Virus record (IMG/VR): IMGVR_UViG_3300017917_002937
Location: 1 to 64,000 of that record
Direction: 5' to 3' (one strand)
From: a virus
DNA length: 64,000 nucleotides
Position 1 is the first letter of the stretch; each line of letters starts with the position of its first letter. Positions 4,011 through 19,726 of the stretch are shown one piece after another. The notes beneath the pieces were generated by a model. It ran no database searches. It had not been told where the DNA came from and saw only the letters and a list, made by a program, of their open reading frames with translations. A program made the translations under genes and the position numbers.

Positions 4011-4384
4011 GTATGTTGCTTTTCTTCAACAATATAACTATCACTTAATATATTAATAAGTTTTTTAATGTCAGCCCTGTTATCATTTTTAATATAAACA
4101 TTTCTAGCTAGTTGTATAAATTCATCATCAAATTTTTGATACTTTTCACAACGTCTTTTAGCTACTTCAATGTCCCACAATTCATTATTAATATCATAAA
4201 GTTTTGTATATAAATTTAAAACATCATTTGACAATTTTAATTCATCAGAAATAGTTTTAAGTGTAGTGTATTCAATAATAACATTTTTTAGTTTATTAAG
4301 GTCAGTGATTTTTTTAGTTTTAATTTCTAGTATACTTAACTTATCCAATAATTCACCAATACTAACAGGGACATATGTAATCAT
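4007..4384 (-). CDS. Conserved hypothetical protein (DUF6165-like)
   Basis: PVSIGELLDKLSILEIK...LWDIE...FIQLARNVYIKNDNRADIKKLIN pattern recognised from memory of this family. Confidence 0.65.
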   Translation of the reverse strand: MITYVPVSIGELLDKLSILEIKTKKITDLNKLKNVIIEYTTLKTISDELKLSNDVLNLYTKLYDINNELWDIEVAKRRCEKYQKFDDEFIQLARNVYIKNDNRADIKKLINILSDSYIVEEKQHT

Positions 4385-17689: not shown

Positions 17690-18508
17690 ATGAACCCATT
17701 ACGACAATACTTTAGAAGACCTGCATTACATTTAAAATTACCAAGTCAAGGTAAATTTTATCCTCAAAATAGTATTGAAATGCCTGAAAATAGTGAATTA
17801 CCCATATTTCCAATGACAGCGATTGATGAAATAACATCAAAAACTCCTGATGCATTATATAACGGTACTGCTATCGTTGACATTATAAAAAGTTGCGTGC
17901 CTAATATTAAAGACCCATGGAGAATTCCAGCAGTTGATATTGATGCATTATTAATAGGTATTAAGTCAGCAAGCACCGGTAACAATTTAGACATATTAAG
18001 TACATGTACAAATTGCAATAATGAAGAAACATTTGCAATAAACTTATTGATTTTACTTCAAAATATTAAGTTAGGTAATTATCATGAACCATTACAAATT
18101 GGAGATTTAAAAATATTTTTTAAACCATTAGATTATAAAACAGTAAATGAAACAAACCTAATGCAATTTGAAACTCAAGTAGAAATCAACAATTTAGAAA
18201 AAATACAAGATGACAAAGAACGATTAAACAAAACTGGAATTACCATGCGTAAAGTCAATGAAAATCTATTTGCAATTATTGCTAAAGGCATAGATAGAAT
18301 TGAACTACCCAATGAAACAGTAACAGATTATAACTTTATACTTGAATTTATATTGAATACAGATAAAGCAACTTTTGAAGAAATGAGAAATTATGGTGTC
18401 TCATTAAGAGAAACTAGTGAAATAAAACCTGTTAAGTTAAAATGCAATAGTTGTGCAAATGAATATTTACAACGTGTTGCATTAAATGTTACTGATTTTT
18501 TCGAATAA
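17690..18508 (+). CDS. gp26: Baseplate hub/tail assembly protein (gp26-like)
   Basis: LKLPSQGKFY, PMTAIDE, D.DALLIGIK.AS.G, two CxxC pairs, ends DFFE; CAGGAG SD. Confidence 0.75.
   Translation: MNPLRQYFRRPALHLKLPSQGKFYPQNSIEMPENSELPIFPMTAIDEITSKTPDALYNGTAIVDIIKSCVPNIKDPWRIPAVDIDALLIGIKSASTGNNLDILSTCTNCNNEETFAINLLILLQNIKLGNYHEPLQIGDLKIFFKPLDYKTVNETNLMQFETQVEINNLEKIQDDKERLNKTGITMRKVNENLFAIIAKGIDRIELPNETVTDYNFILEFILNTDKATFEEMRNYGVSLRETSEIKPVKLKCNSCANEYLQRVALNVTDFFE
18496..18502 (+). promoter_or_regulatory. Candidate -1 ribosomal frameshift heptamer T-TTT-TTC
   Basis: X-XXY-YYZ in the correct phase near the gp26-like stop; the -1 frame opens exactly here (TGA at 18493-18495) and runs to 18732. 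Confidence 0.6.
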
Positions 18509-18732
18509 GGCTTCTGTACTTACAACCTGAAGAAGTGCAGAAGCTACTTGATAGCCTTGAAAAAGAAGCAAATTCAATAAAAGAAAATGCGTTAAAATTA
18601 AGTTGGTATATGAGAGGTAGTGTTTCATATAATGACGTTTTAAATATGTCAACATTTGAAAGAGATGTTATATCCAATATTGCTAACGAAAATTTAGACA
18701 CAACTAAAAAATCAGGACTACCCTTCTTTTGA
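18496..18732 (+). CDS. gp51-like ORF, probably expressed as a frameshift extension of the gp26-like protein
   Basis: LSWYMRGSVSYNDVLNMSTFERDVI resembles gp51/tail-chaperone C-terminal motifs; the only upstream start is GTG at 18535 with no clear SD. Confidence 0.6.
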   Translation, partial: FFRIRLLYLQPEEVQKLLDSLEKEANSIKENALKLSWYMRGSVSYNDVLNMSTFERDVISNIANENLDTTKKSGLPFF

Positions 18733-19150
18733 AGACGAACCACGTTCGTCTAAGACCTCACTAACGTTCGGTCTTATTTTTTAATTATTGATACTAAAAA
18801 CTAATACTTGCCGCTAGGATCTCCATGGTAGTGCTATTCAGCACTACCAACGGGACTTGCCATGCTTGTCACTCCGTGTTGTCTTTGCCAATACATACAG
18901 CCTTACTGCTTATGTATCCTACCGGTTGCCCTTTAAAGTTTATGGCCTGTAGTGAAGCTTATGTTTGTAAACACATCTTCGGCAACGCACATCCTATAAC
19001 ATCAAGACAAAATAGCTATAGGCTTGTTGAGTGTTCGCTTTGTCGATTGCACTCTCGGTATAATGAGGATAGGTTATCCTCCTACTCCAGATCCGTCGGC
19101 ACAGCACTACCTGTACTTTCTCAAGGAGGGTCTAGGAACCTAGACCAAAC
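18733..19150 (-). ncRNA. Candidate large structured non-coding RNA (or structured origin)
   Basis: GC-richer intergenic block with about ten stems, including long-range ones; G-U pairs favour the minus strand. No family recognised. Confidence 0.55.
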
Positions 19151-19156
19151 AAATTT

Positions 19157-19726
19157 TTATAATAAAGGGTTATGTGAAATTCTAGTAATTTGTATTTGTT
19201 GTTCTGACTTGGTGTCAATTATTTTACTATATTTTTTAATTAGTTCTTTGTTTAATTTCCAAAAATGTTCAAATTCTATTATTAACCAATCATTGTGATT
19301 TTTTGATGTATAATATAAAAATTGGTCTGTTATCCAAGTAAGTTTACTTTGGACACACATAAATTTTCCTTTACGATTAAATTTCATAAAAAGTAAATTT
19401 AAATCTTGAGGTTCACTTACAGACATTAGTTGATCTAGCCACGCATCTAAAACTTTACAGTTTCCAGCTAACACTAGATTAAACGGAAAATCAGCATAAA
19501 ATTTACATTCGATATTCATATTACCAAAACTTTGTCCAGGTACAACATCACCCTTAAAGCTACGAATCTGACCTTCATGTAATACTTCTTTTCTTACTTG
19601 ATTTTTACCACCGACATAAGCACCACTTCCTGGAGCACGTATAAAGCTTTCGTCATAAGTATCTGTTAAGAATTTTGCAACTTCTCTCTCAAATCCTGAA
19701 CCTTTTGCTTTTTGTGGACTAGGCAT
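19157..19726 (-). CDS. Holliday-junction-resolvase-like PD-(D/E)XK nuclease
   Basis: KAKGSGFEREVA, RAPGSGA, GDVV, IECK motifs; adjacent to gp46/47. Confidence 0.75.
   Translation of the reverse strand: MPSPQKAKGSGFEREVAKFLTDTYDESFIRAPGSGAYVGGKNQVRKEVLHEGQIRSFKGDVVPGQSFGNMNIECKFYADFPFNLVLAGNCKVLDAWLDQLMSVSEPQDLNLLFMKFNRKGKFMCVQSKLTWITDQFLYYTSKNHNDWLIIEFEHFWKLNKELIKKYSKIIDTKSEQQIQITRISHNPLL

Follow-up and report, generated by a model that had tools for sequence, protein, structure and literature searches.

A large structured RNA family of giant lake phages with twin boxes that change to the same letters

A gap free of open reading frames (ORFs) was analyzed in a 64,000-nucleotide (nt) stretch of viral DNA, positions 1 to 64,000 of IMG/VR record IMGVR_UViG_3300017917_002937 (the window). 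The gap (window 18733-19156, 424 nt) lies between a PD-(D/E)XK nuclease gene and a convergent gp51-like baseplate hub gene, and it almost certainly encodes, in a single copy on the minus strand, a structured non-coding RNA with a core of about 350 nt, or about 425 nt with a spacer and two terminal hairpins. The RNA is a new family of the large, ornate kind of phage RNA, and it carries an unusual signature, two short boxes (A and B) that mutate to the same letters. That the family is undescribed was supported by Rfam 15 and the literature. The sequence-only reading of this DNA, made before the present analysis, had described the gap as non-coding, as the largest of its kind in the window and as richer in guanine and cytosine (GC) than its flanks, and these descriptions held: a conserved ORF was absent from 18733-19156, the runner-up gap was 163 nt, and the GC content of 18808-19156 was 0.45, compared to 0.327 in the window, 0.298 in the nuclease gene and 0.28 in gp51. 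Its main proposal, an undescribed phage RNA on the nuclease strand, was supported by conservation, covariation, the ratio of G-U to A-C pairs and the lack of an Rfam match.

Relatives were collected by a search of IMG/VR with the nuclease protein, which returned 514 matches, and the best 80 loci of the 514 were used; a scan for an invariant hairpin of the RNA added at least 119 further IMG/VR stretches. Because the two locus sets share contigs, the resulting 200 loci are not 200 independent genomes. The gap sequence was found by blastn at the same place in 80/80 nuclease-based loci with identities of 66-99%, and the core profile matched 200/200 loci in nhmmer. A total of 132 different full-length element sequences, including that of the window, were obtained, with a mean pairwise identity of 69%. 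The conserved RNA begins 1 base past the nuclease stop codon. Among the loci with enough flank, the nuclease gene lay upstream of the RNA in 175 of 176 and gp51 converged on it from downstream in 175 of 175. The exception, locus L144, retained the RNA while the nuclease gene was missing from its 12 kb; in the place of the nuclease, a radical-SAM / SPASM gene pair and a SegE-like GIY-YIG homing endonuclease preceded the RNA (L144 5786-7161). The copy number was exactly 1 in each of two complete genomes. The carriers were uncultured giant phages of a lake lineage, roughly 190-520 kb, with three carrier records rated 100% complete (352, 364 and 525 kb), and the DNA runs containing the stretch came from pond, lake, freshwater and drinking-water samples of 9 studies.

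The minimum free energy of the minus strand was -136.3 kcal/mol, compared to -107.2 +/- 6.1 kcal/mol in 100 shuffles (z -4.80, 0/100 as good). Folding energy alone could not name the strand, because the plus strand (z -4.60) came close to this value. RNAalifold predicted 60 pairs from 64 sequences, 37 of them with compensatory changes, and a mutual-information scan with average-product correction over the 132 sequences found the same helices again, together with long-range ones. The full structure tested contained 86 pairs in 13 helices over 64 sequences (alignment A1). In this structure 93.2% of the cells were paired, against 78.6% in shuffles, 55 of the 86 pairs changed on both sides, against 43.5, and the covariation score was 0.416, against 0.159, a score reached in 0/500 shuffles. 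In slid controls, with the partners moved by 1-3 columns, pairing was 33-42% and the covariation score at most 0.087. Over 72 pairs in the 132 sequences, 346 G-U stood against 62 A-C, and the RNA was therefore assigned to the minus strand, the same as the nuclease gene. A coding reading was rejected, as the 132 homologues carried stops in every frame (6.5-8.5 per frame on average on the RNA strand) and their element lengths were spread across all three classes modulo 3. Some 80 positions of the core were invariant, and invariant unpaired nucleotides were numerous. The sequence-only reading had named folding energy against shuffles, conservation and covariation in relatives, and Rfam as checks on its proposal; the energy fell outside the shuffled range, the element recurred in all loci with double changes in most of its pairs, and no Rfam family matched.

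The fold is summarized in Table 1, in which position (pos) 1 of the RNA is window 19159 and the window coordinate equals 19160 minus the RNA position. In H1, only 63.5% of the cells were paired in alignment A1, owing to indels, and compensatory variants were visible. H3 (GTACAG/CTGTGC) showed double changes in 5/8 pairs, and the domain of H2 and H3 contained an invariant internal loop, UUGA / GGAUCU. H5 closes a four-way junction with H6, H7 and H8, and its pair U100-A240 covaried as U-A, C-G and A-U. H8 encloses, besides H9 and the box CACUAC-1, the stretch AUAAACUUUACAG. Two pseudoknots were predicted: PK1 was among the top mutual-information pairs, and the PK2 pair 214-273 occurred as U-A in 81, C-G in 17, A-U in 12 and G-C in 11 sequences. 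PK1 and PK2 were shown, at the level of predicted pairs, to lock the four-way junction to H10. H12, a predicted hairpin whose register differs between lineages, had compensatory variants (UUGAC/GUCAA vs UUGAU/AUCAA; GGU/ACC vs GGG/CCC). H13, in which CGG of box B would pair with a downstream CCG, is a candidate seen in many single folds; it is a 3-mer at varying distance and was not counted. On covariation H11 was silent because it is nearly invariant.

Most of the stems named by the sequence-only reading (CTCC/GGAG, GTACAG/CTGTGC, GAGGATA/TATCCTC, GAGTG/CACTC, GTTGCC/GGCAAC, ATACATA/TATGTAT, and those of H1 and H7) were kept in relatives with compensatory changes, and its 10-base-pair (bp) stem, H11, was present, with covariation uninformative. 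Two of its pairings were dropped. The long-range helix CCGgTAGGAT/ATCCTAgCGG was complementary only in the small subclade of the window and clashed with the covarying H5, H8 and H10, and the alternative TTGCCG/CGGCAA failed because the box does not follow when H8 changes in relatives. H5, PK1, PK2, H12 and the twin boxes were features beyond that reading.

Table 1. Features of the RNA gene and its neighbors in the window.
Feature	Window coordinates	Strand	RNA positions	Evidence
Conserved non-coding RNA core, ~350 nt	18807..19156	-		200/200 loci; 86-pair covariation; G-U/A-C
H1 hairpin GGUCUAGG/CCUAGACC (DNA letters GGTCTAGG/CCTAGACC), after conserved leader	19129..19146	-	14-31	6/8 pairs change on both sides
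H2 CUCC/GGAG, enclosing H3	19085..19128	-	32-35/72-75	100% paired, 1 double change
H4 hairpin GAGGATA/TATCCTC, variable length	19065..19081	-	79-95	6/6 pairs change on both sides, 87.9% paired
H5 UACCG/CGGUA	19056..19060 with 18920-18924	-	100-104/236-240	98.1% paired
H6 hairpin GAGUG/CACUC + UCG/CGA	19029..19054	-	106-131	100% paired; 4/5 outer pairs change on both sides
H7 hairpin CCTATAGC/GTTATAGG	18989..19027	-	133-171	10/11 pairs change on both sides, 99.7% paired
PK1, H7 loop UUGUCU with AGACAA	19005-19010 with 18879..18884	-	150-155 with 276-281	5/6 pairs change on both sides, 94.8% paired
H8 GUUGCC (18981-18986) / GGCAAC (18925-18930)	18925..18986	-	174-179/230-235	3/6 pairs change on both sides, 94.8% paired
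H9 variable hairpin, inside H8	18955-18979	-		
Box CACUAC-1, inside H8	18949-18954	-	206-211	
PK2, segment inside H8 with downstream segment	18944-18946 with 18887..18889	-	214-216 with 271-273	95.2% paired, 2/3 pairs change on both sides
H10 hairpin AUACAUA/UAUGUAU + AGC/GCU	18890..18918	-	242-270	10/11 pairs change on both sides, 99.0% paired
H12 hairpin, box A GCAUGGCAA (18857-18865) at tip	18851..18876	-	about 284-309	Recurs in single-sequence folds of most homologues
H11 hairpin, 10 bp, TGGTAGTGCT/AGCACTACCA	18826..18849	-	311-334	8 invariant pairs (132 sequences), 97.2% paired
Box B GCGGCAA in 3' tail	18808..18814	-	tail ends ~353	Identical to box A at variable position in 122/132
AU-rich variable spacer after core	18776-18806	-		
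T1 terminal hairpin	18752-18775	-		Stem changes compensatorily in relatives
T2 terminal hairpin	18733-18751	-		Stem changes compensatorily in relatives
PD-(D/E)XK nuclease gene, annotated 'RusA-like resolvase', upstream	19157..19726	-		PF24608 E 1.3e-22, profile 2-163 of 164; phrog_244
gp51-like baseplate hub gene	17690-18508	+		PF12322; converges on gap
Small ORF between gp51 and RNA	18535-18732	+		Also converges on gap

The twin boxes set this RNA apart. Box A consists of the word of box B plus 1-2 extra letters, and the two boxes flank the invariant H11. At the variable first letter, the combination in A/B was G/G in 79, U/U in 31, C/C in 10 and A/A in 2 sequences, so the boxes were identical there in 122/132, compared to 58.9 in shuffled data (0/1000 shuffles). 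On the nuclease-gene tree, the two box positions changed 17 and 17 times and their joint state 18 times, a coupling as tight as that of true base pairs. At least 8 box words were common to both sites (GGCAA, GGUAA, GAUAA, AGCAA/AGUAA, GUUGAA, GGCAUG, CAGCAUG and CGCAA/UGCAA), and this sharing is evidence independent of the tree-based joint-change count. Base pairing gives complementary and not identical covariation, and a common partner or a like-with-like contact are the simplest readings. A pattern for pairing between the variable letter and a fixed H12 partner matched 58/132 sequences, an ambiguous result from which no claim was drawn. The sequence TTGCCGC had one occurrence in the window, the box itself. 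A tRNA-anticodon reading, with the boxes as GGC, GGU, AGC/AGU and GAU followed by A, was a thought only and was set aside, as the CGC vs UGC lineage misfits.

We prefer to read it as a folded RNA that stands on its own and carries a bivalent recognition module; as a whole, this reading falls somewhat short of an even chance. Its first part, that the RNA acts in trans as a folded RNA, seems fairly probable from comparative sequence data, because there is no target for regulation downstream and a terminator or stabiliser would need a far simpler fold. Its second part, that the twin-box module might bind one partner twice, is more tentative and on balance doubtful. The RNA would come last in the gp46 / nuclease (recombination) transcription unit on the minus strand, ending at T2 or being processed. 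The core could act as a scaffold, and the 3' domain would show the same box twice, at H12 and in the tail, around H11. The product may be a ribonucleoprotein or an RNA-only assembly, and neither a cis-regulator nor an origin. The boxes would then each bind a copy of the same co-evolving partner. A nucleic acid is the simplest candidate, as the boxes change freely but always together, and the frequent switch of the variable letter might set specificity between related phages.

Several results weigh against this reading. The sole complement of the boxes inside the RNA, the 5' strand of H8 (complementary to GGCAA in 70/132 sequences), was not coupled to the box variants. Columns were also compared over 3 kb upstream and 2.4 kb downstream, a range that took in the nuclease, part of gp46, gp51 and its neighbor, and none followed the box letter; the maximum mutual information was 0.44 upstream and 0.43 downstream, compared to 1.23 between box A and box B. 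Between the complete genomes G003 and G004, which carry different box letters, 62 of 109 candidate sites were alignable, and only the RNA's own box was switched. In one 259-kb genome no excess of the box complement was found; the box of its locus, L118, occurred 6 times there, and all but the RNA's own copy were in unrelated contexts. The joint box changes on the tree could be inflated by recombination between phages, because the boxes are ~50 nt apart. Instead of a nucleic acid, the partner may be a protein, or the boxes may contact each other directly, like with like. The two RNA-Seq-labelled runs described below were flagged as probably DNA and consist of contigs only, in which relatives pile up on conserved sequence.

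A more specific version of the bivalent reading treats the boxes as matched specificity letters on an RNA machine part, a lineage code read either by like-with-like contact (G-G, U-U, C-C) or by pairing with two copies of one short host or phage target outside the 5.4 kb searched. We consider it unlikely. To our knowledge, the A-A helix of OLE RNA is the one case of like-with-like contact described to date. If this version were true, the code of each lineage would bar its RNA from working with a co-infecting relative, and this would be the first jumbo-phage structured RNA that is both bivalent and kin-specific.

As for expression, 3 promoter-like sites were found in a promoter scan, against 5.4 expected, and none lay ahead of the RNA. 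The sequence-only reading had proposed co-transcription with the nuclease gene; the RNA does start immediately behind the stop codon, and the lack of a promoter-like site ahead of it leads us to infer that it is the tail of the recombination-gene transcript, which leaves co-transcription at the level of inference. The runs labelled RNA-Seq consisted of contigs only, uncovered parts were uninformative, and 2 of 4 runs with excess depth were probably DNA. The summed contig depth on the element was 25-305 in run X19 and 4-20 in run X20, compared to at most 14, mostly 0, on the flanks, which is a weak hint of RNA abundance. At the 3' end, a U-run comes after T1 on the plus strand and a short one after T2 on the minus strand, and a consensus terminator scan called neither hairpin. 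Both the outer and the inner stem of T1 changed compensatorily in homologues. T1 and T2 appear likely to form a bidirectional terminator, with an extra RNA-level constraint on T1. The inner design of T1 on the minus strand (alignment A1 columns 540-575) comprised an outer stem, tandem G-A / A-G, a 2-bp stem and a GAA/GAUA/GUUA loop.

The other explanations were considered in descending order of probability. The first, which we regard as quite unlikely, is a conformational switch, in which two folds would be toggled during transcription or on ligand binding to expose or hide the 3' tail. In H11, GUAGUG (pos 313-318) is complementary both to its hairpin partner, CACUAC-2, and to the upstream CACUAC-1, and A240 could likewise pair with U100 or with U223. 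All three hexamers were nearly invariant while other helices were free to vary, and the only common variant, A315 to G, still pairs with both CACUAC boxes. Positions 100 and 223 were both Watson-Crick partners of 240 (100/240/223: U/A/U in 84, C/G/C in 11, A/U/A in 10), and the alternative pairs 206-211/313-318, 214-216/271-273 and 222-223/240-241 were mutually nested. However, the invariant columns yield no covariation either way, position 206 was C in only 89/132 sequences, the alternative helix has 5-6 bp compared to 10 bp in H11, and no gene lies downstream on the RNA strand to be regulated. The last point also led to the rejection of a riboswitch or cis-regulatory leader, as two hairpins and then convergent genes follow the RNA. 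GTAGTG occurred 40 times in the window, against 27.8 +/- 5.2 expected, with 4 occurrences within the element and no pattern.

Less probable again is a cis-acting element at the 3' end of the gp46 / nuclease operon, which would protect the transcript from exonucleases or terminate it before the convergent late genes. The location at the 3' end of the transcription unit, directly between the stop codon and two conserved hairpins, and the failure of the promoter scan to reveal a promoter of its own would suit this role. Nevertheless, the 350-nt core with two pseudoknots, about 80 invariant positions and co-evolving boxes exceeds the needs of a stabiliser or terminator, and L144 keeps the RNA although the nuclease gene is missing from its 12-kb locus.

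A ribozyme, self-processing or trans-acting, would agree with the size, the double pseudoknot and the many invariant unpaired nucleotides, which resemble those of large ribozymes, and yet we rate its chance as poor. No Rfam ribozyme family was matched even at E up to 10. The order H5(H6,H7,H8)-H10 + PK1 + PK2 differs from the group I core and is unlike the P3/P7 pseudoknot of group I introns or the P4 pseudoknot of ribonuclease P (RNase P). No exon is interrupted, because the upstream nuclease gene is complete.

The sequence-only reading had offered an RNA-primed replication origin as its alternative, and this gained no support. Such an origin, or a set of iterons, would have the transcript form an R-loop on the AT-rich spacer 3' of the core, with the twin boxes as DNA sites for an initiator; concerted direct repeats are typical of iterons, and recombination genes adjoin the locus. 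On the other side, the constraints were of RNA type (compensatory pairs, and an excess of G-U relative to A-C on one strand), and only two short boxes exist, differing by an insert of 1-2 nt. The cumulative GC-skew extremum, a minimum in G004, was about 6 kb from the locus there, which would favor an origin, whereas the turning point in G003 was 30-45 kb away, and in both the skew is confounded by gene direction, which it tracks anyway. We regard this explanation as very improbable.

An even slimmer chance is given to a guide or cofactor RNA of the neighboring nuclease. The RNA stands directly behind the nuclease gene in all but one of the testable loci, but this adjacency may be mere synteny of close relatives. 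In addition, no nuclease-gene column followed the box letter, the RNA was present in L144, whose 12 kb lack the nuclease, and cultured jumbo phages carry the nuclease without the RNA. A template for reverse transcription with jumping between identical boxes, as in DRT2, has next to no chance: two identical short boxes do flank a fixed segment, but RVT_1 was found in 0/5 related genomes searched (3 of them rated 100% complete), box A has 1-2 extra letters, and the box-to-box distance modulo 3 was 0 in 25, 1 in 55 and 2 in 51 of 131 sequences, out of frame for the never-ending ORF that was rejected with it.

Searches against known RNAs were negative. With the 4227 models of Rfam 15, no match was found in the window at the gathering cut-off, and at E up to 10 only chance matches to small nucleolar and long non-coding RNAs appeared, none with E <0.1, also for the element alone. 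The sequence-only reading had seen no hallmarks of transfer RNA (tRNA), transfer-messenger RNA (tmRNA), RNase P or group I introns, and this was borne out: ARAGORN found no tRNA or tmRNA in the 64-kb window, the Rfam models of RNase P RNA gave no match, and neither did the group I intron model RF00028, with the upstream nuclease covering its own profile from 2 to 163 of 164. Polynucleobacter-1 (RF01718) did not match the element at E up to 10, and a blastn search with the element retrieved nothing from 50,697 phage records. Judged by their nucleases, the closest cultured phages were SCTP-2, the PA5oct group and Phosso; in PA5oct, SCTP-2 and Phosso the nuclease was present with no room for the RNA behind the gene, and model R1 found nothing significant near the nuclease or in their whole genomes (best E 0.08). 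ORF-poor gaps lay just upstream of the nuclease in PA5oct (L201 1478-2142, ~660 nt) and Phosso (L203 1986-3001, ~1 kb), and both were negative with model R1. One genome per species from 185,579 bacterial and archaeal species was scanned with two patterns; the hairpin pattern gave no match, and the second gave 29 matches, compared to an estimated ~70 by chance, none of them confirmed by R1. No description of this RNA was found in the literature searched, although the more than 10,000 candidate IMG/VR phage RNAs of PMC10690425 may list it, and the supplement lists of 10.64898/2026.09.22.753630 and PMC12286853 may likewise name it.

It is rare for a large, highly structured RNA to have no known role, and among such RNAs GOLLD and ROOL proved to build unexpected RNA-only assemblies. 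The present RNA is closest in kind to these two ornate phage RNAs (RF01998 and RF03087) and is a member of neither family. Like it, they are large, intricately folded, carried by phages or prophages, seemingly protein-free and unexplained in function, and GOLLD was first seen in lake metagenomes. PMC12286853 describes both as forming RNA-only cages and as homo-oligomers whose inter-chain contacts show as covariation. The differences are that neither matched our RNA in sequence or structure at E up to 10, that it is ~350 nt long compared to ~580-800 nt for GOLLD and ROOL, that they often lie next to tRNA genes whereas the 64 kb here contain none, and that our RNA has a fixed place between recombination and baseplate genes.

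The pRNA of phi29 is likewise a structured phage RNA that acts in trans as a machine part, with exposed loops that set phage specificity; it is shorter (~120-174 nt), and its two loops are mutually complementary. A ring RNA of this kind was rejected, as the boxes here are identical and not complementary, and no complement in the RNA follows them. The immunity RNAs P4 CI and P1/P7 c4 also carry two similar direct boxes on one transcript that face one short complementary RNA; both boxes must match, and hetero-immunity among related phages depends on the box letters. Compared with ours, these RNAs are small and of simple build, and their complement is part of the transcript itself; here, the 3 kb upstream, the 2.4 kb downstream and the orthologous sites in two genomes yielded none. 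Candidate structured RNAs of IMG/VR viruses were reported by Fremin et al. 2023 (PMC10690425) from the same data source and on the same kind of evidence, some of them beside resolvase and RusA genes; the candidates named in its text lie upstream of these genes, whereas our RNA lies downstream.

A single copy at one fixed place across a whole lineage of uncultured lake phages makes this RNA worth pursuing, and paired boxes that mutate to the same letters offer an experimental handle, by exchanging boxes and by looking for the partner. From it we may learn how related giant phages discriminate self from non-self, or find a new RNA part of their recombination or assembly machinery. An Rfam entry is deserved, so that the locus is no longer annotated as empty space.

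Further observations were made on the fold and its surroundings. In L164, two profile matches to the element were split by an insert of ~150 nt in H9 (L164 2098-1936), and inserts of ~40-60 nt were present in H4 of L023 (3640-3700) and L144 (7340-7400); because of these large inserts, the tips of H9 and H4 are taken to tolerate expansion. Unpaired neighbors covaried without complementarity at pos 112-113 (19047-19048; AA vs UC, 96 vs 31 sequences) and at pos 205-206 (18954-18955; UC vs CA, 83 vs 36 sequences), which possibly reflects tertiary or inter-chain contacts. Invariant palindromes were present at pos 332-337 (CCAUGG) and pos 67-70 (GAUC), which is only a hint of homo-oligomerisation. 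Beyond the RNA, an 84-codon minus-strand ORF (18489-18743) overlaps the small plus-strand ORF. The plus-strand frame is the likelier gene of the pair because it has a counterpart on the gp51 strand in L010, a 58-codon ORF at 4069-4245 and the only one seen among the relatives examined; L044 had no ORF of at least 50 amino acids at that place. Genome G003 (364,247 nt) is classed in IMG/VR as having direct terminal repeats; its first and last 200-5000 nt are not identical, and its terminal repeat, if any, is therefore shorter than 200 nt. Elsewhere in the window, positions 36749-56944 of the plus strand form one open frame of 6,731 codons.

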